IMG/VR virus record: IMGVR_UViG_2974610597_000001
DNA: 64,000 nucleotides
Source: Escherichia virus ESCO5
Lineage: Duplodnaviria; Heunggongvirae; Uroviricota; Caudoviricetes
Direction: 5' to 3' (one strand)
The notes beneath the pieces were generated by a model. It had not been told where the DNA came from, ran no database searches, and saw only the letters and a list, made by a program, of their open reading frames with translations. This document shows, piece after piece, positions 32,344 to 57,337 of this stretch. Both the position numbers and the translations under genes were made by a program. Within the stretch, counting starts at the first letter, position 1, and the number at the start of each line of letters is the position of its first letter.

Positions 32344-35016
32344 ATGTTTCCAATTCCAATATTTACTATTATGACCAGCACTGGTGTCGTTCCTCTGCCA
32401 GCAGGTATTGTTAAAAAAGTAATCACTCTAGATTACCCAGATAATGCTGGCAATTCTAATAGCAGTTTAGCAATTTTGCTTAATGATGGTAGATTGTTTA
32501 CTCAAGGCGCAAACCTTTTTGGTGAGATTGCAGATGGAACTCGTAGTGCACGATTCAATAATTTCCACTTAGCTTCTACTGTAGTAGCGGATGTGTTTAC
32601 CGCAGATCGTTGTTTTGTTATTAAAACTAACAGTGGGGGATGGCAATATTCAGGATTGACAGCAGGGTTGGTAGGATCTATAGCAGCAGGTGGTACGGAT
32701 GCATGTGTAACTACTTGGACCAGCTTTCCATCTGTAATAACAGGGACTATCTCTTTAGCCAATCTTAAAGAGGTTAAGGGAGGATATAACAACACTCTCT
32801 GGTTGATGAATAGTGGTGTTCTTTATGGATCAGGTCAAAACACAGTAGGCAGTTTAGGTGCAAGTACTACTAACGAAGTTTCTACTCCTCGTCAGATAAC
32901 AAGTGCAGCAGTTGCTTTTGATGCAGGTTACAACCAATGCTCTTATGTCAACAATGTGGGAACCTTGCGTGTTTGTGGGGCTAGTAAAGGTTTAGCAGGT
33001 AATAATAACACAACAACAGCTTTTGTCAATGCCAAGATATCCGCTACTGAAACAGTGTATGTCAAAGATTACATCAATACAGTTTCCCAGACAATAGTTG
33101 TAGGAGATACCTCCGGTGGCACGGGTACAGTAAACTACTTATATGTTAGATCTAATACAGAAACAACCTACACTAAACTGGACACCTTTGCAGCAGGTTT
33201 CTCAACATGGAAATTTCCACCAAGCCGCCACTCTTTTTTCGTTGGGATCAATAATTCCTTGTGGGCTATTGGTAAGAACTACACTGCAAACTTAGGTTTG
33301 GGGTATGATTCTGCGAGCGGAGATCCACTCCAAGTGGGAAAACCAGTTAAACCTGAAGGAGTGGGTTCCTGGGATATAAACAAGCTCACAAGCGTTCATA
33401 CACTGAATATGGATGTTACTAACCAATTAGGTTATCAAGGAACCTTTTTCGTTTATAATGGAGATATGTATTATTCAGGTATTTGGAAAGATGGGAAAGC
33501 CTCGTATCTGTTCAATAGTGGTCTAAACTATAATAAATTCACACCAATAGCAAGCTCCGTGATTACAGGGGATGTTCTGGCAACTGGCTTAACTACAGAT
33601 TCTTTAGGAATTTGTATTGTAGGTGGAACTAAACAGTTGACACATTCTGTTAGCCCAGAAGGAGGTAAACTTTTCAATATTAAATACACTTCTTCTGCCC
33701 CTGCAAACATGACAATATCATCTACTGGTTTAATGACTTTCCATGCAGAAGGTGGTTTTGATGCAGGTATGACAGCCTTAAACGCTGAAGGAACAATTTT
33801 ATCAGATACCTCTGGAGGATATGCTTCAACATTGAGTGTTTACACCCCTAGCTTATCTGCGATGGATGTAGGAACAACACAAACAATGGTAGCAGAAATA
33901 ACACCAACAGGAGCAGCAAGCTTACCTGATATGGTTGTTGAGTATACAACTACAGATCCTAATGTTGCTACAGTAGATCCTACAACTGGTGTAATAACTG
34001 GTGTTGGTGATGGTGGTTGTAGGATTGGTTGCACAGCTACGTATCAAGGTGTTGTTACCGCTTCTGATAGTTCTTATTTAACGGTGAATGCTGTTGCGGG
34101 AAAGGAGTTAGCTCCATCTCCGAGTAGTAGTTTAACGGTTCTAAACGGATATTTCAACCACTCGGCAGATGGGGCAATTACGTTCCCAACTTTATCGGGT
34201 ACTGTTACACCAGCTAACTTTGTAGTTAAGGTGGATGACGTTGTAGTTCCTTCAAGTAAAGTAATATTTAGAAACAAAGCTTTCTCTACAGTGGATAGTT
34301 ATCCAGCAGGAGAATATAGACTGGCTATTGAATTTGCAAGTGCTTCAGTAGTTAATAGTGTGGAAGTGTCTATGGAAGCAAACCCAAGTCTTTTAGAACT
34401 TTGGGGCGGTAATAGAATCAGTTATTCTACAAGCCCAGCCTCACAATTCTTAAAAGGTTGTGCTAACTTAAGACGAATAACTTCTGATTGTTTTAGTAAC
34501 ACATCTTACACCGGAACATCTATAAGCGGTATCTTCTCTGGCTGCACAAGTTTGACAGCTATCCCTGAAGGATTATTCAGTGATGCTTTATTTCCTTCAA
34601 TGACAACAATGTCAAGCACGTTTGAAGGTTGTACATCTTTAACATCTATTCCTTCAGATTTATTTAAGAATCTGTCAAAAGTTACAAGATATTCTTACAC
34701 CTTTAAAGATTGCACCTCTCTTGCAGAAGTTCCAGCAGGAATGTTTGATAATATTCCAACGAAAGTGACCTCTTTAACAGCTACATTCCAAGGTTGTTTA
34801 GGACTTACAGATTTTAATAAGATCTTTAATGACAACCCAGGGTTAACTGTTTGTGGTAAACGTGGAGCATTATCTTCTTTCTTTAGTGGATGCACAAATC
34901 TTACAGGAACAGGAACAACATTAACAAATACATTAGGCGGAGTAGCTAATAGTTACCTATTCAGGTATTGCACAAAACTTTCTGATTATAACAACATTCC
35001 TTCCGGTTATAAATAA
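32344..35016 (+). CDS. tail fibre or receptor-binding protein with Ig-like (Big_2-type) domain and C-terminal BspA-type leucine-rich repeats
   Basis: 890 aa; Big_2-like segment (TTTDPNVATVDPTTGVITGVGDGGCRIGCTATYQGVVTA); five or six C-terminal F.GCTSLT.IP..LF repeats. Confidence 0.55.
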   Translation: MFPIPIFTIMTSTGVVPLPAGIVKKVITLDYPDNAGNSNSSLAILLNDGRLFTQGANLFGEIADGTRSARFNNFHLASTVVADVFTADRCFVIKTNSGGWQYSGLTAGLVGSIAAGGTDACVTTWTSFPSVITGTISLANLKEVKGGYNNTLWLMNSGVLYGSGQNTVGSLGASTTNEVSTPRQITSAAVAFDAGYNQCSYVNNVGTLRVCGASKGLAGNNNTTTAFVNAKISATETVYVKDYINTVSQTIVVGDTSGGTGTVNYLYVRSNTETTYTKLDTFAAGFSTWKFPPSRHSFFVGINNSLWAIGKNYTANLGLGYDSASGDPLQVGKPVKPEGVGSWDINKLTSVHTLNMDVTNQLGYQGTFFVYNGDMYYSGIWKDGKASYLFNSGLNYNKFTPIASSVITGDVLATGLTTDSLGICIVGGTKQLTHSVSPEGGKLFNIKYTSSAPANMTISSTGLMTFHAEGGFDAGMTALNAEGTILSDTSGGYASTLSVYTPSLSAMDVGTTQTMVAEITPTGAASLPDMVVEYTTTDPNVATVDPTTGVITGVGDGGCRIGCTATYQGVVTASDSSYLTVNAVAGKELAPSPSSSLTVLNGYFNHSADGAITFPTLSGTVTPANFVVKVDDVVVPSSKVIFRNKAFSTVDSYPAGEYRLAIEFASASVVNSVEVSMEANPSLLELWGGNRISYSTSPASQFLKGCANLRRITSDCFSNTSYTGTSISGIFSGCTSLTAIPEGLFSDALFPSMTTMSSTFEGCTSLTSIPSDLFKNLSKVTRYSYTFKDCTSLAEVPAGMFDNIPTKVTSLTATFQGCLGLTDFNKIFNDNPGLTVCGKRGALSSFFSGCTNLTGTGTTLTNTLGGVANSYLFRYCTKLSDYNNIPSGYK

Positions 35017-35019
35017 GAA

Positions 35020-35046
35020 AAGGAGCCATTTGGCTCCTTTCTTTTA
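35020..35046. terminator. bidirectional terminator between the convergent modules
   Basis: AAGGAGCC, ATTT loop, GGCTCCTT, flanked by an A-tract upstream and T-tract downstream. Confidence 0.7.
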
Positions 35047-35072
35047 TAAAAACTCTTTATAAATCAATAAGA

Positions 35073-35960
35073 TCAGAACGGAATATCATCATCGAAGTCC
35101 ATCGGAGGTTCTTCTTGATTACTTGGAGTTGGTTCTGGTTGTGGTTCAGGCTTTTTAACTTCTTTCTTCTCTTCTTTCTTAGGTTGTTCTGCGGAACCAC
35201 GAATGGCAGCAGCAACTTTATCAGACAGAGCCAGAACTTTACGAGCAGAATCAATCAGATCTTCTACAGATACAGTCTTAATGGTATGGTCTTTACAAGC
35301 ATTAAGGATAGCGTGACCAACAGATGCCCCAAGATCATAATCATTAATATCAACGCCACGAGATTCAGCAATTTCAGATTTCAGCGTGACAGTTGCAGAT
35401 TGAACAACCCCAGCGATATCGAAAGCATCGCCTTTAACACCATTACGAATCAGTTCCAGTGCACCATTTACTGCGTGACCAGTTTCCAGACCTACAGTAT
35501 CACGTTTTTTATAGGACTGTTTAGGAGCAGCATCGTTGGAACCTTTATTGCCAGAAGATTTGTTAGACTTCTGAACACCATCGGTAGACAATACTGTAAT
35601 ACGAGATTTTTTAGTATTGTAGTAAGTTTTACCGCCTTTATTATCAACGCGATCAATATCAATACTTACTTCTACACCTTTTTCAATAGTGATCCAGTTA
35701 TCACCTTCTTTGACTTGCAGGTTTTCATAACCTTCTTTCAGTTCAATGTCACCAAGAGAAATCCAAACACCTTTCTCCTCTGGTTTAGCACCTTTCTCTT
35801 TCAGAACAAGAGAAGCTCGGTGAGTTGAAACAATCGTTTTTCCTTCCCAATGAAAAGTTTTAGGTTCAGCGAATTTATCCAGTTTAACGTAGTCTACGAT
35901 ACCAGTTGCATAAGTTACGGTTTTGCCTTTACGATCAGTTTCAGTATTAATTACGGACAT
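35073..35960 (-). CDS. single-stranded DNA-binding protein-like, with E. coli SSB-type C-terminal tip
   Basis: 295 aa ending in PSNQEEPPMDFDDDIPF, nearly identical to the E. coli SSB tail; N-terminal body is not a canonical SSB OB fold by eye. Confidence 0.55.
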   Translation of the reverse strand: MSVINTETDRKGKTVTYATGIVDYVKLDKFAEPKTFHWEGKTIVSTHRASLVLKEKGAKPEEKGVWISLGDIELKEGYENLQVKEGDNWITIEKGVEVSIDIDRVDNKGGKTYYNTKKSRITVLSTDGVQKSNKSSGNKGSNDAAPKQSYKKRDTVGLETGHAVNGALELIRNGVKGDAFDIAGVVQSATVTLKSEIAESRGVDINDYDLGASVGHAILNACKDHTIKTVSVEDLIDSARKVLALSDKVAAAIRGSAEQPKKEEKKEVKKPEPQPEPTPSNQEEPPMDFDDDIPF

Positions 35961-35976
35961 TATTATCTCCTCTATA

Positions 35977-36369
35977 TTACATTAATTTTGCACAGAAAGA
36001 GCGGAGTCTTTCCATATCATCTTGCTCTAACAGGTATTTACCTTTACCTATTCCAACTCCAATTTCACCGTTAGGGAAATGAACTATTTGCACTGGAAAA
36101 CCTCCGAGTTTAATTGTGGCAGCTTTGCCTTCTTCGTCTATAACGTTTCGGATTGTATCTTGCAGTGAAATGAATTCTTTGTTTGTAACAGTGGCTTCAA
36201 TTATTTCAGAGGTTTCAACACGAGCCGTTAGCTTCTTGTCTCCACCTTGAATAATCAAAATTTGAAAATAAAAAGAGTTGTCAAGACCTACAACATTTTT
36301 CTCAACTAGTGTCAAACTGGTATAATTTCCATAAACAGTTTCAACAGCTATTTTAGAACGTTCAGTCAT
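35977..36369 (-). CDS. hypothetical protein
   Basis: 130-aa ORF with ATG start and AGGATAG upstream. Confidence 0.45.
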   Translation of the reverse strand: MTERSKIAVETVYGNYTSLTLVEKNVVGLDNSFYFQILIIQGGDKKLTARVETSEIIEATVTNKEFISLQDTIRNVIDEEGKAATIKLGGFPVQIVHFPNGEIGVGIGKGKYLLEQDDMERLRSFCAKLM

Positions 36370-36414
36370 TGAATGCTATCCTATCATAAAATGTTTAATA
36401 TTGTCAAGCTTTAA

Positions 36415-37008
36415 TTACCAAGGAATATCTTCTTCTTCCAATTTGGTATCTACTTGAGGTGGACGTGGAACCTTAACCTCTTTAACAAAACGAAGATATG
36501 GAAAACGTGTAGCGATTTTAATAACATGTTTGGCATCTTCTCTAACATCTTTGTGCAAGAAGCAGATCCCTGTTTCCAAAGTTGTTTCAAAATCTTTAGA
36601 GTAATAACAATCCTTTCCATCAAATGCAGCCTGGCAGATGGACAGATCAAACTCATTCAGAAAGGTTGTCATTACATTTGGGTCCATAATCATAAGGTTG
36701 CAAAGCTGACCGTCACGTTCAAATTCAAAAACGTGTTTAAGACCAGTAACACCCTCGTAGTTATCAGAAGCCTCTTTGTTTCCTAGCTTACGAACATTAG
36801 TTCCCATTAAAGCAGATGCAATTAGTTCTTGTATTTGCTCTTCTGATCGATGTGCAGGAAGTGACGTATAGAAATCCAGATCACGTCCAGCAATATCAAG
36901 AATACGCCAATCACGAACAGCACCGCCAGCCAAGACAGAATTAGGATCAGCGATCTTTAAGACAGTAAGAATTTCTTTGGCAATGTTGATTTGTTTTGAT
37001 TTAGTCAT
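36415..37008 (-). CDS. Pol-beta superfamily nucleotidyltransferase (CCA-adding/poly(A) polymerase head-like)
   Basis: GGAVRDW then RDLDF ([GS]-x(9-13)-DxD pattern) near the N-terminus; C-terminus EEEDIPW resembles the SSB tip. Confidence 0.5.
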   Translation of the reverse strand: MTKSKQINIAKEILTVLKIADPNSVLAGGAVRDWRILDIAGRDLDFYTSLPAHRSEEQIQELIASALMGTNVRKLGNKEASDNYEGVTGLKHVFEFERDGQLCNLMIMDPNVMTTFLNEFDLSICQAAFDGKDCYYSKDFETTLETGICFLHKDVREDAKHVIKIATRFPYLRFVKEVKVPRPPQVDTKLEEEDIPW

Positions 37009-37219
37009 TGATACGCTCCACAGTTACTTTAACAATATCGTCCATATTAATCTCATCTCCCAAGACTTCAATAACACCTTCCTCATAAAGTCGAGCACAT
37101 TCTTCCCATACTTCTGCTTCCGTCATTCCACCTTCAATCTTATTTGCAAGACCTTTAATAACATCTTCATTTTGTTCATCAATAAGAATTGAAACATTAA
37201 AGCTCACTAGTTTACGCAT
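37001..37219 (-). CDS. hypothetical small acidic protein
   Basis: 72-aa ORF overlapping the upstream stop. Confidence 0.35.
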   Translation of the reverse strand: MRKLVSFNVSILIDEQNEDVIKGLANKIEGGMTEAEVWEECARLYEEGVIEVLGDEINMDDIVKVTVERIND

Positions 37220-37227
37220 TGTTTTCT

Positions 37228-37395
37228 CCTTATACCTCTAAACGGAAAGTTTCTTTAGATACAAAATCGTATCCACCTTTTTCAAGCCAGTCATTGTAAA
37301 CCTCATCAGCTTGAGACTCTATCATAAAATACCGAGTGGTAATTTCGTCTCCGACAATACGCACAATTTTATAGCAAATCATGATACCATTTCCC
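37228..37395 (-). CDS. hypothetical small protein (55 aa, not in the ORF track)
   Basis: ATG overlaps the upstream stop (TAATG) and follows GGAGG; translation MGNGIMICYKIVRIVGDEITTRYFMIESQADEVYNDWLEKGGYDFVSKETFRLEV. Confidence 0.3.
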
Positions 37396-37396
37396 A

Positions 37397-37588
37397 TTAA
37401 TCTTCCTCCAGATCAATTTCATTATAGCAATGTATGCAGTAGCCATCGTTGTGCATATGTTGTTCATAAGACATATCTTTACCACAAGACCAACAACGAA
37501 TATCGCCATCGTCCCATTCACGTTCTTCTTCGCCTTCAAATGCATCTGGTAGGTAAGGCATACCAAGACAATCTAAATCGTAATGCAT
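37397..37588 (-). CDS. small zinc-ribbon protein
   Basis: Start moved to the ATG at 37588 after AGGAGGAG; Cys pairs CWSCG and CIHC; acidic C-terminus. Confidence 0.4.
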   Translation of the reverse strand: MHYDLDCLGMPYLPDAFEGEEEREWDDGDIRCWSCGKDMSYEQHMHNDGYCIHCYNEIDLEED

Positions 37589-37637
37589 ATCTCCTCCTAT
37601 AAAGGGGCAGAAGCCCCTTATAAAACAATATGTTAGA

Positions 37638-40600
37638 TCAATGACAGGATGCCCAGGAATTACCCACGTCATATCCGGCAGTAAGCTGAACGTTAAGATT
37701 GTAAAATTCTCCAGCCTTAGTAACAGCTAAAGCAGCAAGTTCACCTGCCCGACTATAAGCTGTAAACCATCCACCTTTGGGAGATTCATGAATGTTAGCC
37801 CAAATTTGCCCTGTCTCTTTTTCCTTATTATGCTTCCATTCTTCAACTTTAGCAAGGCATTCTTTATCAATTTTCTTTTGTTCTTCAGGATCGTCTACTT
37901 TCTTCCAACCTAATGATTCAGGTGAAAACCATTTGAATTCTACAAGGTTACGAGAAACTTCAAGCTGGGCTTCATCGTGGTATGCAATCATTTGTTGCAC
38001 GAAGTCTTTATTCTTCCAGTCATCTTTAAAGAAGTCAACACTTAGTCCTTCTTCTTCGATCATATCGTCATAAATAACCATTGCACGTTTAGCACAGATA
38101 ACCCCACCACTTTGGAACAGAGAGTTAAGAATCGCGTGAGCAGAACGAGTAGGAACCTTACGACCGTCAATACCCAAAACATACTGTTTACCAGTCTTAA
38201 CCCAGAAATCGTTTAAACGTTCTTTAAGACGCGCCAGTGGGAATGCAGCTTCCCAGAAAGCATCGAACACCAGTTGCCCTGTAAACTTATCGCTACCAAT
38301 TGTTTTAGCAACCTTGTCGGCTTGTGCACCATAGGTAATACCATACTTAACAGATTTAGCAGGACTACGTTCAAATTTACGTCCAATAGTTTCAGTGATA
38401 CGTTTTGCCATCATGGTATGAACATCGTTAGGCTTCTCTAACAAGAGAGCGTTACAGTATTCATGAGGCTCCGGTTCGTAGCGCCAACAGTTTCCTGTGA
38501 TGGTAATGCAGTCTTTCTGACGCATGACCCACGTACCAAGTTCTGTTTGTGGACACCAAACATCCTCTACACCCCACTCTTCAATAGTCAAACTTTGAAC
38601 AGGAATGTGAGAGCGGTTAGCCAATGTTACCACTTTTACTTTCTGCTCTTTTGTATTGAAAGCTACAGAGATATTGCCTCCATGCACCAGGTACGAGGCA
38701 GTTAAAGCTGCTTCAAAAAGTTCACCTGGGTTCTGCGCCCAACGCCAAACAGGTTTTTGTTTATGTTCATGCCAGTAACCATCTGCAATCAAGAAACCTT
38801 CCAAGAAAGCTACACGCTCGGCATGAGACATATTAACTACACGCTCTACCCACGGAACATCCCATTTACCTTGTTGAACAGAAGTTAAACTATTTACCTG
38901 ATCTTGTTCCATGTTAAATGGAGCATTACAAATAATATTATCTCCTGTGCAAAGCTCGGCAGTTGTTCTGACTTTAGGCACATAAGTATTCCCTTTACTA
39001 CGGGTATTAACATACCAACGGTGATCTGCTGTTGCACGGTAAGTGTGTGATTTCCCTTTAATCTCAAACGTCTTACTATTTTTATAGAAGACCTTACCTT
39101 TTACTTTAGTCCATTCTTTCAGACCTGTTTCAGCATTGTACCCTAAAATCTCATCCCCTTCCTTCAGGTCGTGATATCCTACCCAACCTTTACGAGTCAA
39201 AGCTTGAGCATCCATCGGCACACAGTAATGCGACTCAATCTTTGCTTCCAAAGAGTCGAAGTCATAACCGATCTGGAAATATTTAGGAACTTCTACACCA
39301 AACAAGTTACGCATCTCCCATCCAAACAAAGATGTGACACGAGGGATATTGGCTACAGACCTATGCTTCATACGAGAGGTTGCAGCATCACATGTAGCGG
39401 CTGGGGTAGGAATACGCCCATCTGCCCTTACTGCGGCTAAGAAACCTTTATCGTATTCTTGATCTTCTTCATCTTCTTCCCAATCAGCACCGCCACCTAA
39501 AATAGAGTTCCTACGATGCTTATACGTTAAGTATTCTACAATCTGAGTAGCATAAGGAAATTTCTCACCCAAAGCTTGCAGGTTAGGACAGATTTCTTTT
39601 TCCTGACCTTTGGTAAAACATGGGTTAGTCAATACTTTAAGACCGCGACCTTTACCTTTTGCTATACGCTCTTGAATCTTCCTTTCCAAGGTTTCCGGTG
39701 CGCACTCCAGATGATCACAACGGTCCTGACAAAAATTAGAAGATAAAGTTTGCTCAACGTAAGCTCGAATACCTTTCTGAAGTTCTTCCTCACTCTTTTT
39801 AATCTTGGTGCCAGATTTAAGAGTCAAATCTTTATCTTTATATTCCGATGGTACCCAACCTAATCCTACAAGCCAGTTTTTAATATGGGTTGTATCGTTC
39901 AATGTCGCAGGGATGTTAGGATCACACAGAGGCTCATCTGCTGCAACTGGCAGTTTCCACTCTTTCCCCAACATAACTAACCACCAATCGCCATCCCTCT
40001 CTTCCAAATGACCATCATGTTTTTTAGCAAAATTGATCATATGGTTAGTTGGTTCGAGGTTCTTTTTAATTTGCAATTTAGGCGGAATAAAAGCTTTAAG
40101 ATAACCTTTTGTTGCTGGTTTAGGTGGCAAAATAGGCTCAACGAGTAAACGAAGACGCTCCATTTCTGCATCCAAAAAAGCAAGGTTCTCTTCTGCTTGC
40201 TTCATATTAAAAGCAAACCCACGGTGTTCCTGGCGCGTGATAATGTCTGCTACACGTTGTTCAAGTTCAAATGGACCTTCCCATTTATCATAATCACCCC
40301 ATTCTTCCATAAGGTAGTTATATACGCTCGTATTGGCTTTGTTGTCATAGATACAGTAATAAAGCATATCCGCAGCAAAAGTCTTAAATCGATCTTCTTC
40401 TGGAATCTCTTTACGGAAATCTATTTTTACATCACCACCTGCTTTTCGAGAAAGTGCTGCCAAGCTATGTCCTGATTTGCCCTCAATCTTTCGATCTGGG
40501 TTTAACACTTTACTCAAAATCAAGGAGTCAATAAGTTTTACCTTATTTTTGCCCCACGTATTATATTTAACACTGTAATCTAATCCATAAAACAGTTTTG

Positions 40601-40970
40601 TAGCCAACCAGTCGTAGTTGATACCGTTGTGAGCCACAGCCATTTCAACCAGATATTCAGGCTTGTCTTTAAAATAACCTTCATGATTAATAAAGTCTGG
40701 GAAATCTTTTAGTTGAAAATGCGTGTAATCTTGCGCCACATACTCTTTAAGAACATATGTATATTTACCATCTGACTCTTCATAAGGACGCCCATCAAAG
40801 ATGTATTTAGGGCCATCGTGGAAAGCTACTATTTCTCCTGTTTCATGGTTCTCTAAGACAATACAGTGCATTTGAAATGTGTCTTTGAGACGATAAGGAC
40901 TAGCTAAATAATCAATAGTGTCATTATTCAACAATCCGTTTGCTTCAATATCCCATGTAAACTTACTCAC
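37638..40970 (-). CDS. family A DNA polymerase with 3'-5' exonuclease domain, interrupted by a putative intein
   Basis: Exo motif DIEANGL; motif A DFDSLEAKI (res 571-579), motif B RSPAKSVKYGITYG (869-882), motif C YHDE (997-1000); about 250 extra residues between motifs A and B. GTG start overlaps the upstream TAG. Confidence 0.9.
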   Translation of the reverse strand: MSKFTWDIEANGLLNNDTIDYLASPYRLKDTFQMHCIVLENHETGEIVAFHDGPKYIFDGRPYEESDGKYTYVLKEYVAQDYTHFQLKDFPDFINHEGYFKDKPEYLVEMAVAHNGINYDWLATKLFYGLDYSVKYNTWGKNKVKLIDSLILSKVLNPDRKIEGKSGHSLAALSRKAGGDVKIDFRKEIPEEDRFKTFAADMLYYCIYDNKANTSVYNYLMEEWGDYDKWEGPFELEQRVADIITRQEHRGFAFNMKQAEENLAFLDAEMERLRLLVEPILPPKPATKGYLKAFIPPKLQIKKNLEPTNHMINFAKKHDGHLEERDGDWWLVMLGKEWKLPVAADEPLCDPNIPATLNDTTHIKNWLVGLGWVPSEYKDKDLTLKSGTKIKKSEEELQKGIRAYVEQTLSSNFCQDRCDHLECAPETLERKIQERIAKGKGRGLKVLTNPCFTKGQEKEICPNLQALGEKFPYATQIVEYLTYKHRRNSILGGGADWEEDEEDQEYDKGFLAAVRADGRIPTPAATCDAATSRMKHRSVANIPRVTSLFGWEMRNLFGVEVPKYFQIGYDFDSLEAKIESHYCVPMDAQALTRKGWVGYHDLKEGDEILGYNAETGLKEWTKVKGKVFYKNSKTFEIKGKSHTYRATADHRWYVNTRSKGNTYVPKVRTTAELCTGDNIICNAPFNMEQDQVNSLTSVQQGKWDVPWVERVVNMSHAERVAFLEGFLIADGYWHEHKQKPVWRWAQNPGELFEAALTASYLVHGGNISVAFNTKEQKVKVVTLANRSHIPVQSLTIEEWGVEDVWCPQTELGTWVMRQKDCITITGNCWRYEPEPHEYCNALLLEKPNDVHTMMAKRITETIGRKFERSPAKSVKYGITYGAQADKVAKTIGSDKFTGQLVFDAFWEAAFPLARLKERLNDFWVKTGKQYVLGIDGRKVPTRSAHAILNSLFQSGGVICAKRAMVIYDDMIEEEGLSVDFFKDDWKNKDFVQQMIAYHDEAQLEVSRNLVEFKWFSPESLGWKKVDDPEEQKKIDKECLAKVEEWKHNKEKETGQIWANIHESPKGGWFTAYSRAGELAALAVTKAGEFYNLNVQLTAGYDVGNSWASCH
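38490..39224 (-). other. putative intein (Hint domain with LAGLIDADG-like motif) inside the DNA polymerase
   Basis: Residues 583-827: N-terminal Cys, block-B-like TADH, LEGFLIADGYW, C-terminal ITITGN followed by Cys +1. Confidence 0.55.
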
Positions 40971-42271: not shown

Positions 42272-42299
42272 TATTTTTAATAAAAGGGCCGAAGCCCTT
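42272..42299 (-). terminator. rho-independent terminator after primase-helicase
   Basis: On the - strand AAGGGC, TTCG loop, GCCCTT, then TTATT; stem overlaps the primase-helicase stop codon. Confidence 0.55.
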
Positions 42300-44076
42300 A
42301 ATAATTGCTATCCGTAGGCAAATTAGCAGGATTGTTGAAATACTGCTCTTTGTCATGCAGAGTTGCAGTTCTAATGTCATAGTAAAACTGCCCTGCCGGA
42401 CCAGTTTCCGAGAACTCACGGTTTTTTAGGATAAAGCAATGAGTCGTATTGCGTTCTACAGGGTCTTCAGCGGCTTTATCTCGTTCCAAAGCCAAGGTAA
42501 TACCAGCACCTTTAGCCAAGAAACTACTACCCATTGCATCGTCCTCTGTTAAGTGTTCATTGCCACCATTAGCCGATTTCTTAACGTGTGAGATGACGAT
42601 AATAGTTATAGCATACTCTTTCATGATGCGCTTCAACCATGTTGCTAACTCTTCCTGGGCTTGAACATCCATACCAGAAAGCAAATCAGAATAAGGGTCG
42701 ATAACAAGAATTGTTACTCCAAAATAGATGATCATCTCCAAAACTTTTTCTTTGATAGACTCCACATCTGCTCCACGATCATCACACACATAAAAACGTG
42801 GTGATCCATCTTCTCTTTCGTAAAAATCCAGGATTTTTTCTTTATTCTCTTCCAAGATTTGAAATTTCTCTTCCGGTGTTTTCCTGTGTAGAGGAATATG
42901 CAGGAACGAGGACAACAGGTTACGAGAATATTTCTTATAAGTTGCTTCCAAGGACAGAATACCTAGGGTATGTTCTGGGTGCGCAACAATAATATGTTTG
43001 GTGATCTCGTTCACCATCAAAGTTTTACCGATACTGGTCTTTGCCAGGATGACTGTAATCTCTTCCTCTACTAAACCACCACCCAGCATATTTGCAGCAA
43101 CACGCATAAAAGGAGGCAAGGTAATCATCTTGGATTCCAAGCATTCTAATGCAGCTTCATACAAGACATTAGAAGCATAAACACCTGCTGGGGTGTATAG
43201 ACGAGCACTCCAAAAAGCTTTTACGAAATCTTTTGCACGACCTTCTTCCAGATACTGATTGGCATCCTTAAGATCCATCTGCATACGATAGACTTTGTTA
43301 CGAGGCAGCACCTTAACAATATTTTCAAATGCCTCATTACCTGCTTTGTCGTTATCCATGCAAACAATAATCTTCTTAAATTTTTCAAAGAAAGGATATT
43401 GTGCCTGAACTTGTTTATACATACTGGTTTCACCAGTTGTGCCACTTACTACGGCTGGAAGCTCATATTTACTGTCCAAGTTTTCAGATAGCATTTGATA
43501 AGCTGCCAGAGCATCGTGTTCACCACCTGTAATTACAACAGTATGAGAACGGTCTGCAAAACGAATTTGTCCAAAAAGATCTACATCTTTACCTACTTGA
43601 CCAATAGGTTTACTGAAATCTTTAGGATGAATACGACGCTTAAAACCAACCAATTCTTTACCGATGGTAGTCGGATATAAACAACTTTCTACTACCATCT
43701 GATCTCCTTCCTGACGGTATTCATAACGAACACCATAGAAAGATGAAACTTTTTCTTTAATGCCTCGATAACCACGTGGGTTGGTTGATGTTTCTTGAAC
43801 AATTTTACGATGAATCTGTTTATTAAATTCCGAACCCACAATCTCCTCCTCTTCTTCTAAAACTTCACCATTTTCTCGTAACCATTCTACGCTAGGAATA
43901 GTGTATTCACACGCAAAGCACTTAGCACCTTTATGCTCTCCATTAGAATCTAATCCGTAAACCATCAGGTTATTACGAGAGCGATCCTTGCCATTTTTCA
44001 TGCAGCGCGGACAACCTGTATGTCCTTCCTTGCTAAGATCAACATCAAATCCATATTTAGTTATAATGTGCGACAC
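42298..44076 (-). CDS. bifunctional DNA primase-helicase (T7 gp4-like)
   Basis: N-terminal zinc ribbon (CPRC...CFAC), TOPRIM-like segment (VVITGGEHD, CMDNDKAGNEA), Walker A (AKTSIGKT); GTG start after AGGAGA. Confidence 0.85.
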   Translation of the reverse strand: MSHIITKYGFDVDLSKEGHTGCPRCMKNGKDRSRNNLMVYGLDSNGEHKGAKCFACEYTIPSVEWLRENGEVLEEEEEIVGSEFNKQIHRKIVQETSTNPRGYRGIKEKVSSFYGVRYEYRQEGDQMVVESCLYPTTIGKELVGFKRRIHPKDFSKPIGQVGKDVDLFGQIRFADRSHTVVITGGEHDALAAYQMLSENLDSKYELPAVVSGTTGETSMYKQVQAQYPFFEKFKKIIVCMDNDKAGNEAFENIVKVLPRNKVYRMQMDLKDANQYLEEGRAKDFVKAFWSARLYTPAGVYASNVLYEAALECLESKMITLPPFMRVAANMLGGGLVEEEITVILAKTSIGKTLMVNEITKHIIVAHPEHTLGILSLEATYKKYSRNLLSSFLHIPLHRKTPEEKFQILEENKEKILDFYEREDGSPRFYVCDDRGADVESIKEKVLEMIIYFGVTILVIDPYSDLLSGMDVQAQEELATWLKRIMKEYAITIIVISHVKKSANGGNEHLTEDDAMGSSFLAKGAGITLALERDKAAEDPVERNTTHCFILKNREFSETGPAGQFYYDIRTATLHDKEQYFNNPANLPTDSNY

Positions 44077-44088: not shown

Positions 44089-44367
44089 TTAAAATGGTTC
44101 GTTAGTCTCCATCATATATTCTGCTTCTAGTTCTTCCATGTGCTTTCTAAATTGGAAAGCAATTTCTGCTACAGTTACATTTAAATCTTTTTCAAAAACT
44201 TCTGTAGATCCTTCATAAAAACGAATACCGTCAATTAAAAGCCCTCCGTGGTAATCCCAATCGCTTTCACGAGAAAGTGGATTAGGTTCTTCATAATAGT
44301 AATCCACCTCCACAACCAAGGCTTTCCCGTTACGAGTGGTGTATTCAAAATCAAAAGTGTTAATCAT
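44089..44367 (-). CDS. hypothetical protein
   Basis: 92-aa ORF between primase-helicase and the glycosyltransferases. Confidence 0.4.
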   Translation of the reverse strand: MINTFDFEYTTRNGKALVVEVDYYYEEPNPLSRESDWDYHGGLLIDGIRFYEGSTEVFEKDLNVTVAEIAFQFRKHMEELEAEYMMETNEPF

Positions 44368-45311
44368 TATAGCTCCTCAAATAAAAGTCTACGACGCTCA
44401 TTCAACACATCAATGTGATAATGAGTCCTGACATACTTAGCTAATGCTAATCCTTTCTCCATGCAAACATCGGGAGCACTTAATAAGTATTCCGTAATAT
44501 CTTTCCACTCGGAAGGTGTTTCAGCAAAGAATAACAAATCTTTAAACTCTTGTGTATGATAATTCTCACGAGGAGAGCAGATTAAAGGTAAACCCTTAGC
44601 ACCTGCCTCAAGAATTTTAAGATTGCTTTTTGCATTATTAAACACGTTATCGATCAATGGTGCAAGACTGATTTGATGACCATCGTAAGATTCCATGTAG
44701 TAGGCATATGGTCTTACACCTTCATAAACACAAGTTGGTGCTACATTTTCCCTGATTAAAGACCATTCACGACTACTTAAAACTTCAGAATCCCTACGAA
44801 AACCACATATTGTAAGATCTTTACCAAAATCGGGCAAGATAGCCAAATCTTGTTTATGTGTTTCACTTCCAGCCCAGACTAATGGAGTTTTGGAGTAGCG
44901 ATCACGGGTCAACACAAATTGACCTTCATCGTAAGGAAGTCCATTAGGGATTATGTGCACATTATCATTGTATTGTGAAAGTTCAACTTGCAAGGCAGGT
45001 GTCGTAGTTGTAACAAGATCACTGTGCTCTAAAAACCATTTTAAATGTTCACGAATACCTGATTCAAAAATACCTTCTAACATGTGTCCTTTTGGAATAA
45101 CTAAAGAGTCATCCAAATCCATAACCATTTTAAAGCCCAGGTTTTTAAGGGCTAAAAAGCCCTCTTTACCTTTTGTTGGCACTCCGTTAAAAACGAAAAC
45201 GTTGTGTTTAGGTTGTGAAGAGAACTGCCTTGAGTAAGGCAGCACTACCCTATGGAAATCGCAGACACTATAATTGATTCCGTTACGATTGTCAAGAATT
45301 ATTTGTCCCAT
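44367..45311 (-). CDS. glycosyltransferase, GT-B-like (paralog 1)
   Basis: 314 aa; C-terminal NLKILEAGAKGLPLICS resembles the GT-B sugar-donor region; clearly paralogous to 45319..46305. Confidence 0.5.
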   Translation of the reverse strand: MGQIILDNRNGINYSVCDFHRVVLPYSRQFSSQPKHNVFVFNGVPTKGKEGFLALKNLGFKMVMDLDDSLVIPKGHMLEGIFESGIREHLKWFLEHSDLVTTTTPALQVELSQYNDNVHIIPNGLPYDEGQFVLTRDRYSKTPLVWAGSETHKQDLAILPDFGKDLTICGFRRDSEVLSSREWSLIRENVAPTCVYEGVRPYAYYMESYDGHQISLAPLIDNVFNNAKSNLKILEAGAKGLPLICSPRENYHTQEFKDLLFFAETPSEWKDITEYLLSAPDVCMEKGLALAKYVRTHYHIDVLNERRRLLFEEL

Positions 45312-45318
45312 ACTTCAC

Positions 45319-46305
45319 CTACAAACTTTCAATAACCTGGCGTCGCAATTCGTTTGCATCTGCCAGATTATAATGTGTTCGAACATGTTCCGCTAAGAAC
45401 AAGCCGCGATCTTCCCGATAGTTCGGATTGCGAAGAAGCTTAACAATTTCGTAATGCCATTCAGCTTTATTCTCTGCGTAAGCAACAGCGCGAGCATCTA
45501 CAGGGTTAAAATAAGGTAATACCTTAGAACAAACAATCGGAATACCTTTTGCCCCAGCTTCAAGGATTTTGAGATTACTTTTACAATTATTAAAATCATT
45601 GTCTACCAAAGGAGCTATAGCAATAGCATGACTTTCGTAAACACTCATGTAATTATCTAAATCTTTTACAGCAGCTTTATATTTGGCGTTTGGTAAATTT
45701 CTACGGATCTTAATCCACTCTTGCCCTGTGATACTCTGCGATGCTTCATATCCTGCAATAGTAAGAAGTTCATCATCGAAAGTATTAGAGACTAGTCGTA
45801 AATCGGGTTCGTGACTAGCACCGCCAGCCCATACAACAGGGGTACCGGATGAACGATCATTTGACAAAGTGAATTGTCCGCTATCAAAAGGAAGTGCATT
45901 TCGGATCACAACAACATTCCTATTTAAGTGACGGATCTTATATGCCAAATATTCCGTAGTCACAATGACCACATCGGCAAGCTTAACCATAGCTACAATA
46001 GCATGAGTGTTTGACTCATATAAACTTGCTAAATAATGTTCTGGATTAAGTTGGTAGAAATCATCTAAATCTACAACAATCTTAACACCTTGACGTTTCA
46101 GTGACAGAACATATTCTGCCCCTTTAGAATGAATACGGTTAAACACGACAACATCTTTCTTAGGCTGAAAATTATTGTTGTTAAATGGTATAACAATACG
46201 ATGATAATCACAACCACTGTGAGGTTTTGCATCAATTTTCAGTTTAGTCCATTTTTTATTTGACATGTGCCAGTGCCTCCTCATAAGAAATTCGGATTTT
46301 CCCAT
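45319..46305 (-). CDS. glycosyltransferase, GT-B-like (paralog 2)
   Basis: Shares CDYHRIV..., VVWAGGASHEPDL and NLKILEAGAKGIPIVCS with paralog 1; true start probably the internal Met near 46266. Confidence 0.5.
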   Translation of the reverse strand: MGKSEFLMRRHWHMSNKKWTKLKIDAKPHSGCDYHRIVIPFNNNNFQPKKDVVVFNRIHSKGAEYVLSLKRQGVKIVVDLDDFYQLNPEHYLASLYESNTHAIVAMVKLADVVIVTTEYLAYKIRHLNRNVVVIRNALPFDSGQFTLSNDRSSGTPVVWAGGASHEPDLRLVSNTFDDELLTIAGYEASQSITGQEWIKIRRNLPNAKYKAAVKDLDNYMSVYESHAIAIAPLVDNDFNNCKSNLKILEAGAKGIPIVCSKVLPYFNPVDARAVAYAENKAEWHYEIVKLLRNPNYREDRGLFLAEHVRTHYNLADANELRRQVIESL

Positions 46306-46939
46306 TTTTAATATCTTCTAAAGACGCTTTATATTCTTCCCAGTTAATGCCAATAGCAACTTCTTTCTCTTCTTTTGTCAGATTAGCAAAAGGCATAGGA
46401 TTGTTTCCAAAAACATCGTCTGGGTGGATATAAGCCATGATACGAAGTGGACAAGGTATTGCCTGAATGCCCTGATTCAAACCAGCAGCTTTCAAACGGT
46501 GTACCCATTCAGCATCTTCAAAACCATAGCCGTGAGTGTAAGGGCGGAAATAACCCATCTTCTCAACAACGGCACGAGAATACATTGCAAATTGACACAT
46601 TGCAAGTTCCCAGAGAATAACTTCTCCTTTACTCCCAACAACTTTATCTTTGAAATACTCCGGCATACCAAAGAAATCCCATCCTCCAGAGACAGCTTGA
46701 TCTACAAAATATGTTTCCCATCCCTCCATGATTGGGTAGCAATCGTCGTCAAAAATAAACCAATAATCATAACCTTCTTCATAAAACTGGTGCATAAGTT
46801 CATTCCTGGCGTAAGCTACACCTTTACGATCTGGATCGTTGAATACTCGAAAATCTGCATGTGGATCTGTTACAAGGTAGTCTTTAAGTGGACGGACACC
46901 TACAGTGATAACACCCACTCCGATTTTAATATTTTCCAT
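46256..46939 (-). CDS. glycosyltransferase, GT-A (family 2)-like
   Basis: 227 aa with DxD-type motif (IFDDDC) and GYGFEDAEW. Confidence 0.5.
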   Translation of the reverse strand: MENIKIGVGVITVGVRPLKDYLVTDPHADFRVFNDPDRKGVAYARNELMHQFYEEGYDYWFIFDDDCYPIMEGWETYFVDQAVSGGWDFFGMPEYFKDKVVGSKGEVILWELAMCQFAMYSRAVVEKMGYFRPYTHGYGFEDAEWVHRLKAAGLNQGIQAIPCPLRIMAYIHPDDVFGNNPMPFANLTKEEKEVAIGINWEEYKASLEDIKNGKIRISYEEALAHVK

Positions 46940-46947
46940 TTTCTCTC

Positions 46948-47511
46948 CTAAATAGTTTTACTGTGATCGTGACAGTGTAATAAATGATGTATAGACCGTT
47001 GAGGATTTGTTTGACCTAATCTGTAAATGTGAAACAGATACATTCCCCGCATCAATCCTAACCTCTTTCCTTTTTCATGTAAAGTGCGAGAGAAAATTAA
47101 GTCGAATTGGATAGATTTTTCTTCGAAAGGAATTTCATTCCACAATGATTTTCTAAAAAGCAAAAAGAAACCTGCCAGAGGTGTTCCGAAAGGAACTTCT
47201 TCAACACTCACTTTATGATATTCTCTTGCAATCTTAGCATATTCTATATGGTTTAGAATATCTGGATCATCGTTAATTTGGTTAGAGAAAAGCTGATAAC
47301 CACTACCTAACCTGTTACAAGTTGCACCTATTACATCAAAAGGCGGGTTTGACATAACAAGCTCTTCAAGCATAGATGGTTGATCAGGCAGGAGGAACAT
47401 TGTATCGGTATCTCTTAAGCACACCCAACTATCATCTGGAAGAACGGCAATAGCTTCATTGATAGCCTTGCCGATATTTCCTGTCAGATAGGGAGTAATA
47501 TAATAAATCAT
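46948..47511 (-). CDS. putative nucleotide-sugar transferase (GT-A-like)
   Basis: 187 aa with CLRDTDTMF; weak gestalt similarity. Confidence 0.35.
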   Translation of the reverse strand: MIYYITPYLTGNIGKAINEAIAVLPDDSWVCLRDTDTMFLLPDQPSMLEELVMSNPPFDVIGATCNRLGSGYQLFSNQINDDPDILNHIEYAKIAREYHKVSVEEVPFGTPLAGFFLLFRKSLWNEIPFEEKSIQFDLIFSRTLHEKGKRLGLMRGMYLFHIYRLGQTNPQRSIHHLLHCHDHSKTI

Positions 47512-55461: not shown

Positions 55462-56535
55462 TTAAACAGCAGCTTCTTCTTTTTCAGGGAAGATAAAGCT
55501 TGCAATAACACCAAGAGATAATGTGCCTAGAACAATCATCAGACTTACGTTAGGGGAAATATCATGCGGGAGGAATGACCACTTGGCATGAAGTGTTTCA
55601 CCGAACGGGTGATACATAAGTTTAGCACCAACAAACACCAGAACCACAGCAACAGCTTTCTCTAAGTGAACCAGATATTTCACAGCTACACTTAACACAA
55701 AGAAAAGTGCACGTAAACCAAGAACAGCCATCAGCATTGCAGAATAAACTAGCAGAGGTTCTTGTGTCACACCGATTACAGCCGGAACTGAATCAAAAGA
55801 GAAGACAATATCTGTAAGCTCAATAACAAACACACAAAGAAGAGCAGGAGTTGCATATTTAATACCATTCTTAATGGTAATGAACTTTTCACCATCTAGT
55901 GCATTGTGCACAGGCAGAACTTTACCTACTAAACGAACAGCCCAATGCTTAGAGTAATCAATATCCTCTTCTTCGTCACCACCTTTGATGATAGCCACGG
56001 CAGACCAAGCTACAATCAAACCGAACAACACTTGGACCGACCAATGAAGGTTAAACAAAGCGGTCCCTGCTGCAACAAAAATACCTCGGAAGACAATGGC
56101 TCCTGCAATCCCCCAAAGTAAAATCTTATGTTGAAGATGTGTGCTCTTAATTCCAAAGCTTGCAAAAATTGCCATGAATACCATCAGGTTATCTACAGAA
56201 AGACTCTTTTCCAACACATAGCCACTTAGGAAAAGCGCGGCAAACTCTTTACCATGTTCTACCCAAATGAATGCGTAATATCCTAAAGCTAAAGCAATCC
56301 AAAAAACAGACCAAAGCAAAGCAGATTTAATTCCAATTTCTTTATTTTTACCATGTTCTACCCAAATGAATGCGTAATATCCTAAAGCTAAAGCAATCCA
56401 AAAAACAGACCAAAGCAAAGCAGATTTAATTCCAATTTCTTTATTCTCTTTATGACCAAAGAAATCGATACCAATAGACAATGCCAAAATACCAACTAAA
56501 ACAACTACATCAATAATTGGGAAACCGAGTTGCAT
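55462..56535 (-). CDS. terC: TerC-family integral membrane protein
   Basis: Multi-pass membrane protein with LEKSLSVDN and TDIVFSFDSVPAV motifs; contains an internal exact 33-aa duplication. Confidence 0.8.
   Translation of the reverse strand: MQLGFPIIDVVVLVGILALSIGIDFFGHKENKEIGIKSALLWSVFWIALALGYYAFIWVEHGKNKEIGIKSALLWSVFWIALALGYYAFIWVEHGKEFAALFLSGYVLEKSLSVDNLMVFMAIFASFGIKSTHLQHKILLWGIAGAIVFRGIFVAAGTALFNLHWSVQVLFGLIVAWSAVAIIKGGDEEEDIDYSKHWAVRLVGKVLPVHNALDGEKFITIKNGIKYATPALLCVFVIELTDIVFSFDSVPAVIGVTQEPLLVYSAMLMAVLGLRALFFVLSVAVKYLVHLEKAVAVVLVFVGAKLMYHPFGETLHAKWSFLPHDISPNVSLMIVLGTLSLGVIASFIFPEKEEAAV
56248..56445. repeat. perfect 99-bp tandem duplication (2 copies) inside terC
   Basis: 56248-56346 is identical to 56347-56445; in frame; CTCTTTA occurs at both 56245-56251 and 56446-56452. 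Confidence 0.95.
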
Positions 56536-56616
56536 TCTTTTCTCCTCTCTTTGCGGGGAACTATTCCCCGCTTCATTTGATATATATCTTACTCTTTTTA
56601 AGAACTATGTCAACAC

Positions 56617-56838: not shown

Positions 56839-56850
56839 ACTAATCTCCTC

Positions 56851-57324: not shown

Positions 57325-57337
57325 TTTTAGCTCCTTA

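Follow-up and report, generated by a model that had tools for sequence, protein, structure and literature searches.

What would a small phage nucleotidyltransferase (NTase) gain from ending like an SSB? The question arises at a locus of Escherichia phage ESCO5/REC (Phapecoctavirus), the source of the 64,000-nucleotide stretch of DNA that was analysed here as a whole (the window). A sequence-only reading had described, at positions 36415-37008, a 197-aa protein with a GG...DxD signature that ends in EEEDIPW. This was confirmed on the minus strand: the ORF starts with ATG, has GGAG 7 nt 5' of the start and encodes the C-terminus ...KLEEEDIPW directly before its stop codon, and the product is 100% identical to the ESCO5/REC protein. 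The overlap between the stop of the upstream ORF and the NTase start (ATGACTAA) implies translational coupling. The gene is already named 'nucleotidyltransferase' or 'putative tRNA nucleotidyl transferase / poly(A) polymerase' in GenBank, and it is called nucleotidyltransferase in PHROGs too, with profile matches to PHROG 10174 (E = 4.2e-63) and PHROG 1614 (E = 8.2e-12). No paralogues were found when the family HMM was run against all genome ORFs; ESCO5 gp195, a protein of equal length, proved unrelated in the same search. Features of the locus are listed in Table 1.

Table 1. Features of the NTase locus and its replication neighbours, with positions in the window.
Feature	Position	Strand	Evidence
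Bidirectional intrinsic terminator hairpin, closes the Pol-NTase-SSB unit	35018..35041	.	10-bp stem with 5 GC pairs plus T-run, both strands
SSB-like protein, 295 aa: beta domain (1-125), linker, four-helix domain (156-253), disordered acidic tail	35073..35960	-	tip match, AF2 pLDDT 78
SSB-like tip PPMDFDDDIPF, identical to host SSB tip	35076..35108	-	alignment to 1eqq/4mz9, 7f2n
Conserved 130-aa protein, between NTase and SSB-like gene	35977..36369	-	PHROG 16560, E = 3.5e-76
NTase gene (ESCO5 HOR27_gp223), stand-alone class II-type, 197 aa	36415..37008	-	ORF call, PHROG, AF2, Foldseek
SSB-tip-type tip E-E-E-D-I-P-W (DNA GAAGAAGAAGATATTCCTTGGTAA), then TAA at 36415-36417	36418..36438	-	conservation, recurrence
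Disordered variable linker, residues 179-190 (KVPRPPQVDTKL)	36439..36474	-	pLDDT drop, column variability
E95, candidate third catalytic carboxylate, strand 90-98	36724..36726	-	E/D in 70% of 199 members; predicted beta strand
Motif A, G28-G-A-V-R-D-W34 ... D43-L-D45, predicted nucleotide-/metal-binding catalytic core	36874..36927	-	aligns with GGAVRD...DxD of CCA-adding 6ibp, 1miv
Upstream 72-aa ORF	37001..37219	-	stop overlaps NTase start by 8 nt (ATGACTAA); PHROG 25475
Family-A (T7-type) DNA polymerase, candidate docking partner for acidic-aromatic tails	37638..40970	-	PF00476
T7 gp4-type primase-helicase (Toprim + DnaB_C), second candidate partner	42298..44076	-	PF13155, PF03796

The fold was assessed by structure prediction and by structural and profile comparison. 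The AF2 model of the NTase (pLDDT 86, pTM 0.80) contains a head and a neck stub, without body or tail domains, and its structured sequence ends at about residue 178. When the PDB was searched with Foldseek, the top 30 matches were all class II CC-, A- or CCA-adding enzymes and E. coli PAP, with E values down to 1e-5. TM-scores were 0.45-0.58 when normalised to the query and about 0.28 when normalised to the target; approximately 190 of the 197 residues aligned structurally with class II enzymes, although the targets, at 350-520 aa, are about twice as long. In a profile search of PDB sequences, 11 of 14 matches belonged to the class II enzymes (the best at E = 1.5e-3, further ones at 0.1-0.7) and the other three had E > 0.8; a single-sequence search of the same sequences with the NTase gave noise only. 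By AF2, Foldseek and the profile search alike, the protein is the Pol-beta/class II NTase head without body domains that had been predicted for it.

The head fold is common to the phage protein and to class II tRNA NTases and PAP I (PF01743; Aquifex CC-adding 3wfr and A-adding 1vfg, Thermotoga CCA-adding 3h39, E. coli PAP 3aqk), and the phage protein has motif A (GGxVRD...DxD) and keeps the order of helices and strands. Unlike those enzymes, it is half-size and lacks the domains, body and tail, that anchor RNA or tRNA. Its family has an invariant Trp of its own after GGAxRD and does not conserve motifs B (RRD) and D (EDxxR): the NTase reads N-E-F-D at the motif B position, where D was found in 24% of 199 family members, and E-D-A-K-H at the motif D position, where the 'ED' residues were E or D in 9-14%. 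The register of both motifs was set by eye from motif order and is approximate. The NTase also falls under the Pfam and NCBIfam cut-offs, scoring 15.4 bits against a 23-bit cut-off for PF01743 (PolyA_pol) and 12.2 against 438.8 for TIGR02692.

Residues of the predicted active site were strongly conserved among the same 199 members: D43 and D45 in 100%, G28, G29 and W34 in 99%, and R32, Y84 and K164 in 97%. E95 may be the third catalytic carboxylate, judging from the alignment and the predicted strand on which it lies. The best explanation of the sequence and the model is that the protein is a class II head with a neck stub that would act as a catalytically competent, template-independent, stand-alone NTase.

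We then considered how the C-terminus differs from the rest of the protein. Over the last two 10-residue blocks, pLDDT fell to 60 and then to 44, with values below 50 at residues 190-197. Among tail-bearing relatives, the mean majority fraction was 0.94 in the tip, 0.37 in the linker and 0.80 in the body; no linker column was invariant and indels were present there, while the P and W of the tip were invariant down to 58% identity. Endings of the form [ILVMF]-P-[FWY] were rare in the reconstructed 149-kb genome, being found on real proteins only in the NTase and the SSB-like protein; one more match among the 886 genome ORFs is a probable non-coding frame.

Such endings nevertheless recur across the NTase family. 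When the family was clustered at 50% identity to give 150 independent representatives, six carried an [ILVMF]-P-[FWY] ending where 0.21 would be expected (binomial P = 8e-8), and three ended in PW against an expectation of 0.03 (P = 4e-6). The tail-bearing members share a mutual identity of only 25-37% and their closest neighbours are without the tail, which places them on scattered branches of the family. In viral contigs generally, -[DE][DE]DIPW endings were present in 79 ORFs forming 17 clusters, among them eight canonical PF00436 SSBs (-DDIPW) and four SF2 helicases. -DDIPW is a genuine variant of the SSB tip. An abundant group of DDIPW-ending proteins of about 197 aa in these contigs appeared NTase-like by eye and was rejected, with 0 matches to the family HMM. 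At three loci (L005, L041 and L043), PolA-adjacent proteins in the SSB position end in DIPW or DVPW; for NTases ending in EEIEF or DSFDKF, no SSB-tip ORF was found within the flanks that were fetched. Literature searches for the DIPW motif returned nothing relevant. Because an invariant tip sits on a variable, disordered linker, because it recurs within the family and because -DDIPW also ends SSBs and helicases, the tail of the NTase looks functional. The SSB-tip-like C-terminus noted in the sequence-only reading was therefore borne out.

The tip invites comparison with the E. coli SSB-Ct (DDDIPF) and with the tails of T7 gp2.5 and gp4, which likewise have an acidic run and an aromatic end; an Ile-Pro-aromatic end on a disordered linker is a further likeness. 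The T7 gp4 tail docks on the same T7 polymerase as the SSB of that phage. The acidic tail and terminal Phe of the T7 SSB mediate its binding to T7 polymerase and to the helicase/primase (10.64898/2026.02.22.705581). The NTase differs from SSB in that its tip sits on an enzyme without an OB fold, and in having a linker of only about 12 residues. It also ends in Trp, unlike the host SSB and the phage SSB-like protein, which end in Phe.

The earlier claim that an SSB tip, DDDIPF, is encoded two genes away was confirmed as well; the protein that bears it resembles SSB in the tip only. Its gene lies two genes downstream of the NTase, and its C-terminus (EPPMDFDDDIPF) is identical over 12 residues to E. 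coli SSB, the match being confined to the last 12 or so residues. The SSB-like family conserves DxD[ILVC]PF. A fold search with this protein gave no match at E <= 1e-3 and marginal OB folds only, so its identity as an SSB is plausible but unproven. The tip is followed directly by the stop codon and the terminator. A scan for promoters and terminators gave counts equal to the shuffled expectation, and only the strong hairpin 3' of the SSB-like gene was retained. The intervening 130-aa protein had no Pfam, NCBIfam or PADLOC match; its gene keeps its position in phi92 (gp157), in KP13-26 and in loci L019-L029.

The order Pol I, NTase, 130-aa protein and SSB-like protein is conserved in all of these. 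In a census of 143 neighbours at 43 dereplicated loci, DNA_pol_A was the commonest neighbour (19), followed by DnaB_C (17) and Toprim_2 (13), with 5'-3' exonuclease at 5. The family itself is large, with 1,047 representatives at E <= 1e-3, nearly all of 170-230 aa, and its fold recurs in many small phage proteins of BFVD. Of the same family or fold, and in the same size class, are other small phage proteins labelled 'tRNA nucleotidyltransferase' or 'poly A polymerase head domain' (PHROG 10174, 1614), for example phi92 gp158 and those of Pseudomonas phage LKD16, Pectobacterium phage PP2, Acinetobacter phage fBenAci002 and Vibrio phage ICP1 (ORF223). These are usually located in DNA-metabolism regions, as is the ESCO5 NTase, but unlike it most are without an SSB-type tip. 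Literature searches found no published functional test of the small phage NTases, and searches on the Phapecoctavirus NTase and on phage tRNA nucleotidyltransferase function gave nothing relevant.

We propose, tentatively and with confidence slightly short of even, that the protein is an active NTase tethered through its SSB-type tip to the replisome or to an SSB-partner protein. Since it is encoded in a replication operon and ends in an SSB-type docking peptide, its site of action is probably replicating DNA rather than tRNA. Recruitment to SSB-tip binding sites was one of three roles offered for the protein in the sequence-only reading, and the conservation and recurrence of the tip make it the best supported of the three. 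In the ESCO5 phage clade the tip would serve as an address tag on a disordered linker, its terminal aromatic residue and carboxylate fitting into a pocket whose usual occupant is an SSB tip. By analogy with the T7 gp2.5 and gp4 tails on T7 polymerase, this pocket may belong to the phage family-A polymerase or to the gp4-like primase-helicase; a host SSB-partner protein and the OB domain of the SSB-like protein are further candidates. Docking would concentrate the NTase at SSB-coated ssDNA or at replication forks, where it might extend the 3'-OH end of DNA or of a primer RNA by adding nucleotides, or instead nucleotidylate a protein bound to it. The likely purpose would be to shield or process intermediates of phage replication, possibly in the face of host defences that sense ends or SSB.

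Several observations count against this reading. The NTase tip ends in Trp, whereas Phe is the last residue of the host SSB and of all 120 relatives of the phage SSB-like protein, and thus the two tips may not share a pocket. The body of the NTase is mildly acidic (pI 5.4), which is atypical for a polynucleotide binder, and the third-carboxylate position is E or D in just 70% of family members. Some relatives lie in nucleotide-metabolism regions or in small-gene early operons and are not polymerase-adjacent. Finally, the tip is absent in most family members, including the syntenic orthologues of phi92 and KP13-26; tethering is therefore not essential to the core function of the family.

The absence of the tip from most members would suit an enzyme that acts without being tethered, and the characterised protein nearest to the NTase, a remote relative at profile level only, is Gad2, through its NTase domain. 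Experiments have verified that Gad2 counters Gabija, and its NTase domain is an AlphaFold2 prediction. When the family profile was aligned by hhalign to the verified Brevibacillus Gad2 (sequence from 10.1101/2023.05.01.538930), the probability was 78.5% and E = 1.7e-5 over 119 columns. These columns contain GG...DxD and F-D-x-[ST]-[IV]-C and correspond to Gad2 residues 14-137. Relatives at 35-60% identity (P0009 at 60%, P0015, P0017 and others) are recorded under PF26128 'Gad2', but the NTase itself has no Pfam hit on record. Pfam scans within this analysis gave no PF26128 match, and BLASTP of the NTase against Gad2 was not significant. Like the ESCO5 protein, Gad2 (PF26128; SPbetaL7 ORF_159 and the Brevibacillus laterosporus homologue) is a phage NTase with GG...DxD followed by F-D-x-[ST]-[IV]-C. 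It differs in being about 400 aa long, with a large C-terminal domain (its C-terminal 250 or so residues have no counterpart in the 197-aa NTase), in lacking the R-D-W of GGAVRDW, and in lacking an SSB-type tip. It also occupies an anti-defence locus of temperate Bacillus phages, while the NTase belongs to a syntenically conserved core replication operon and not to a variable anti-defence island. Since, in addition, its conservation and recurrence argue that the tip matters where present, we consider it unlikely, if quite conceivable, that the NTase is a free-acting Gad2-type enzyme, directed at Gabija or a similar defence, whose tail is incidental or modulatory.

Kinship with tRNA enzymes was the other obvious lead, as among solved structures the tRNA CC-, A- and CCA-adding enzymes come closest and GenBank names the gene accordingly. 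The NTase would on this account be a minimal CCA-adding enzyme, restoring CCA to tRNAs, of the phage or of the host, whose ends host nucleases had damaged; the phage has 10 tRNA genes as well as RNA ligase and phosphoesterase genes, and E157-D158-x-x-H161 is superficially like motif D. However, the domains that would hold the tRNA are missing, the residues of motifs B and D vary as given above, and both tRNA-enzyme models score below their cut-offs. CCA is already encoded in 10 of 10 phage tRNA genes, and the host has its own CCA-adding enzyme. No tRNA gene was found within the window or in two other genome segments; the cluster, of 10 genes, is at record positions 56193-58204, which is 41 kb from the NTase inside its replication operon. 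Only three tRNA-related neighbours, each a singleton, occurred among the 143 of the census. DARNA cleaves anticodon loops and not CCA ends, so it lends no support to CCA repair. With body and tail absent, motifs B and D unconserved, CCA-encoding tRNAs and replication genes as neighbours, tRNA 3'-end repair, a role suggested in the sequence-only reading, is poorly supported and we regard it as improbable.

The tail might also act in cis, either as an autoinhibitory nucleic-acid mimic on the substrate groove of the NTase or as an oligomerisation element. It is acidic and disordered, and in SSB and T7 gp2.5 the tail is known to compete with ssDNA at the binding surface of the same protein. In the NTase, however, the body is itself acidic, so electrostatic fold-back of the tail is not favoured. 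What is conserved, moreover, is the I-P-W terminus and not charge, which is a hallmark of pocket docking, and the same terminus ends unrelated families (SSBs, helicases and others) that have no body in common. A role in cis therefore appears doubtful, and we give it a low probability.

Synthesis of a nucleotide second messenger or alarmone by a CD-NTase-like enzyme, also suggested previously, is very improbable: the Pol-beta superfamily fold with DxD and one weak Foldseek match to the FaRel2/ATfaRel2 toxin-antitoxin complex (8pu1_B, E = 0.03) are set against an empty PADLOC scan (nothing at E <= 1), significant structural neighbours that are all polynucleotide 3'-end transferases of the tRNA NTase kind and not cGAS/DncV-type, and the lack of a consistently linked effector or receptor gene among the 143 neighbours at 43 loci.

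Returning to a tethered NTase, the tip and the Gad2 kinship together allow a broader proposal. The SSB tip (acidic-Ile-Pro-Phe/Trp) would be a portable phage tag that takes a Gad2-related NTase to a host protein with affinity for SSB tips, or to replication intermediates coated with SSB; by nucleotidylating DNA ends, primers or the protein bound there, the enzyme would blind end- or SSB-sensing defences such as Gabija. We judge this rather unlikely in its full form. If true, the NTase would counter host defence after reaching its target by mimicking the SSB interaction hub, and it would open a way into the mechanism of Gad2. Hundreds of phage genomes carry a small gene annotated as 'tRNA nucleotidyltransferase-like', and clustering at 50% identity leaves over 1,000 representatives of the family. 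The company of T7-type replisomes and not of tRNA genes, a place as the sequence family nearest to the NTase domain of Gad2, and a tip attached independently in several lineages turn this vague annotation into a specific hypothesis that is cheap to test.

The -DDIPW/-DDIPF tip is common to at least 17 unrelated phage protein clusters, which comprise SSBs, SF2 helicases and several uncharacterised families. This breadth suggests wide use of the SSB interaction hub by phages, as a code for recruiting proteins. Provided that the tip binds partners of the host SSB, the proteins that carry it could also inhibit the host SSB interactome by natural competition.

A 197-aa open reading frame with an ending like that of an SSB tip had been noticed in the sequence-only reading, and the gene is real. 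Its start overlaps by 8 nt (ATGACTAA) with the end of the 72-aa ORF before it, and GGAG is found upstream of the start. Over the surrounding 3 kb (35000-38000) the window matches Escherichia phages ESCO5 and vB_EcoM_REC (Phapecoctavirus, Stephanstirmvirinae) at 100% identity; a simple string comparison of the distal part of the window with 113000-127034 of the ESCO5 reference, NC_047776.2, gave no exact match, and the sequence may derive from a near relative of ESCO5, for example vB_EcoM_REC. As the gene is already annotated (HOR27_gp223 in ESCO5, 'nucleotidyltransferase' or 'putative tRNA nucleotidyl transferase / poly(A) polymerase') and filed in PHROGs (families 10174, E = 4e-63, and 1614), the enzyme assignment is not new; the analysis of the tail is the new part.

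Positions of the features discussed, in window coordinates unless another record is named
Feature	Position	Strand	Remarks
SSB-like protein, annotated SSB	35073-35960	-	E. coli SSB match in last 12 residues only
130-aa protein, PHROG 16560	35977-36369	-	
Nucleotidyltransferase (NTase) gene	36415-37008	-	ATG start, 197 aa, C-terminus ...PPQVDTKLEEEDIPW
Insertion in family-A polymerase, 245 aa	38490-39224 within 37638-40970	-	Cys at start; ...TGN then Cys at end
Glycosyltransferase-annotated genes, ESCO5 gp211-gp214	~44367-47511	-	
tRNA cluster	ESCO5 record 56193-58204 = locus L008 6194-8205		10 genes with genomic CCA; outside window
phi92 gp156, SSB-like homologue	locus L002 6026-6973		

An AlphaFold2 model of the NTase built from a 46-sequence alignment was confident (pLDDT 86, pTM 0.80), with residues ~1-178 structured and the final ~19 disordered. 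When the model was compared with the PDB by Foldseek, all of the best 30 matches were class II tRNA CC-/A-/CCA-adding enzymes or E. coli poly(A) polymerase, with E down to 1e-5, query-normalised TM-scores of 0.45-0.58 and ~190 aligned columns; the target-normalised TM-score was only ~0.28, the targets having twice the length of the NTase. This agrees with the earlier proposal of a Pol-beta-type enzyme without body domains. A profile search of PDB sequences found the same enzyme class weakly, via motif A only (best E = 1.5e-3), while Pfam PolyA_pol scored 15.4 bits, under its 23-bit cut-off, and the NCBIfam CCA models fell far under threshold. Across 199 family members, D43 and D45 are 100% conserved, G28, G29 and W34 99%, and R32, Y84 and K164 97%; position 95, a putative third carboxylate, is E or D in 70%. 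The RRD position of motif B (ribose reading) is kept in 24% and the ED positions of EDxxR in motif D (base templating) in 9-14%. Taken together, fold and conservation point to an enzyme that is very probably an active nucleotidyltransferase and very probably the head plus neck stub of a class II scaffold; it has neither the tRNA-anchoring domains nor the CCA-specifying motifs.

Tail conservation was measured among relatives at 58-97% identity. The mean majority fraction was 0.80 for the body, 0.37 for the linker and 0.94 for the five-residue tip, in which P and W are invariant; no linker column is invariant, and indels are present. A conserved tip on a variable linker is typical of short linear docking motifs. 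The syntenic orthologues of phi92 and KP13-26 have no tip, and it recurs in scattered distant branches as NDFPW, DDIPW, NDIPW, DGIPF, PIPF and SIPY, on proteins with a mutual identity of only 25-37% whose nearest neighbours are without it. Among 150 independent family representatives the tip was present in 6 (expected 0.21, P = 8e-8) and a PW ending in 3 (expected 0.03, P = 4e-6). Genome-wide, this ending is confined to the NTase and the SSB-like protein.

We scanned viral contigs for the pattern [DE][DE]DIPW directly before a stop codon and obtained at least 120 stretches. Among the matches listed, all 79 analysed (contigs L099-L178) were real ORF ends, and these ORFs fell into at least 17 unrelated protein clusters, which suggests a recruitment tag in wide use. 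Forty representatives included 8 canonical SSBs (PF00436, best E = 1e-31) and 4 SF2 helicases, with DUF6511, DUF669 and DUF736 among the remainder. The helicases are 570-750 aa long with FDFPFGYNV upstream of the tip, and the motif also occurs on an abundant ~197-aa family whose function is not assigned. DIPW or DVPW is likewise the ending of the proteins that occupy the SSB position beside PolA in Vibrio phage 1.235.O and in two phages known from metagenomes. -DDIPW is thus a true variant of the SSB tip, and its addition to non-SSB replication proteins is a strategy that phages have used repeatedly.

The SSB-like protein encoded two genes downstream ends in 12 residues (EPPMDFDDDIPF) identical to the tip of the host E. 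coli SSB, whereas its modelled body consists of an all-beta N-terminal domain, a linker and a four-helix domain before a disordered tail; its fold matches are marginal, yet repeatedly OB folds. The protein is possibly a non-canonical ssDNA binder with an exact copy of the host tip. As 120 of 120 tip-keeping relatives end in Phe and none in Trp, the two tips are alike but not identical, and a shared pocket is not required. A conserved extension of ~15 residues (APIGLQYGRNFLHCF or variants) follows DDDIPF in phi92 gp156 and the homologues P0201, P0255, P0261 and P0303. P0201 is 99% identical to the window protein, yet extended; in the window, TGA directly follows IPF, and then a terminator. The extension would bury the free carboxylate of the tip, and extended and unextended homologues are possibly on/off tip variants.

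The best-supported model is that the NTase would be an active, template-independent enzyme tethered via its SSB-type tip. The earlier suggestion of recruitment by the tip gains support from tail conservation and recurrence. The tip would dock in a pocket that binds SSB tips; candidates for the protein bearing this pocket are the phage polymerase, the primase-helicase, a host SSB partner and the SSB-like protein. In T7, the gp4 tail docks on the polymerase. The T7 SSB tail likewise binds polymerase and primase-helicase (10.64898/2026.02.22.705581). A replisome of just this T7 type is encoded in the window. Once tethered, the NTase could have as its substrate either 3' ends present at replication intermediates or the protein to which it is docked. 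Fold, conserved active site, tail pattern and gene surroundings are observed; binding, partner, substrate and purpose are inferred. Against this model stand the acidic body (pI 5.4), the Trp where the SSB-like tip has Phe, and the many relatives, indeed most, that have no tip.

An exhaustive profile search gave 1,047 family representatives (E <= 1e-3, 50% identity clusters), nearly all stand-alone proteins of 170-230 aa, and BFVD contains many small phage proteins of this fold, whose names vary between 'tRNA nucleotidyltransferase' and 'poly A polymerase head domain protein'. The precomputed Pfam family of many relatives is PF26128, 'Gad2'. Gad2 is a ~400-aa anti-Gabija protein of SPbeta-like phages, a predicted NTase whose expression is toxic (10.1101/2023.05.01.538930); as late as February 2026 its mechanism was still called unresolved (PMC12904381). 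We compared the family profile with the experimentally verified Brevibacillus Gad2 from the supplement of 10.1101/2023.05.01.538930. Because hhalign gave 78.5% probability (E = 1.7e-5, Gad2 residues 14-137), pairwise BLASTP was not significant and the window protein has no Pfam match on record, the kinship appears remote and confined to the NTase domain, that of a relative and no orthologue. This kinship makes a protective or counter-defence purpose plausible, although its remoteness weighs against that reading. The finding amounts to an annotated mini-NTase family carrying an added SSB interaction-hub tag, and would be of greater interest if the tag targets a defence or host SSB partner.

Of the other roles suggested earlier, neither fared as well as tethering. 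Repair of tRNA 3' ends is not supported, as all 10 phage tRNA genes, ~41 kb away, encode their own CCA and the NTase lies in a replication operon: primase-helicase, methyltransferase, family-A polymerase, three small ORFs, NTase, 130-aa protein and SSB-like protein, with a strong terminator ending the NTase transcription unit. Phi92, KP13-26 and several metagenomic phages share the order polymerase, NTase, ~130-aa protein, SSB-like protein. A census of 43 dereplicated viral loci, restricted to proteins of 200 aa or more no further than 4 kb from the NTase homologue, covered 143 neighbours and counted DNA_pol_A (19), DnaB_C (17), Toprim_2 (13) and 5'-3' exonuclease (5), as well as DNA methylases, ligases and thymidylate synthases; domains related to tRNA were limited to three singletons. 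The family keeps company with DNA replication, not tRNA, and some relatives lie in nucleotide-metabolism regions or early operons of small genes. Second-messenger synthesis found no backing, with no PADLOC match for the NTase and no CD-NTase-like structural neighbours in Foldseek.

Several further features were observed. RNA ligase and phosphoesterase genes lie ~5 kb upstream of the ESCO5 tRNA cluster. In a group of related large phages (L009, L010, L013 and L014) the NTase homologue, one ending NDFPW, heads a small-gene operon upstream of TerC and dTDP-sugar genes, divergent from a DUF7325 gene and away from the polymerase. The 130-aa protein always lies between the NTase and SSB-like genes in Stephanstirmvirinae-like phages; it had no match in Pfam, NCBIfam or PADLOC, and may function together with one or the other of these neighbours. 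The polymerase insertion contains LEGFLIADG (LAGLIDADG-like) and had no Pfam intein match at E <= 1e-3; the polymerase of a related contig (L017) is 865 aa, exactly 245 aa shorter, and the insertion resembles an intein that carries a homing endonuclease. Immediately upstream of the primase-helicase, and oriented like it, come four successive glycosyltransferase-annotated genes (gp211-gp214), and dTDP-sugar genes are also present elsewhere in the phage genome; these genes could point to glycosylation of DNA or of a surface.
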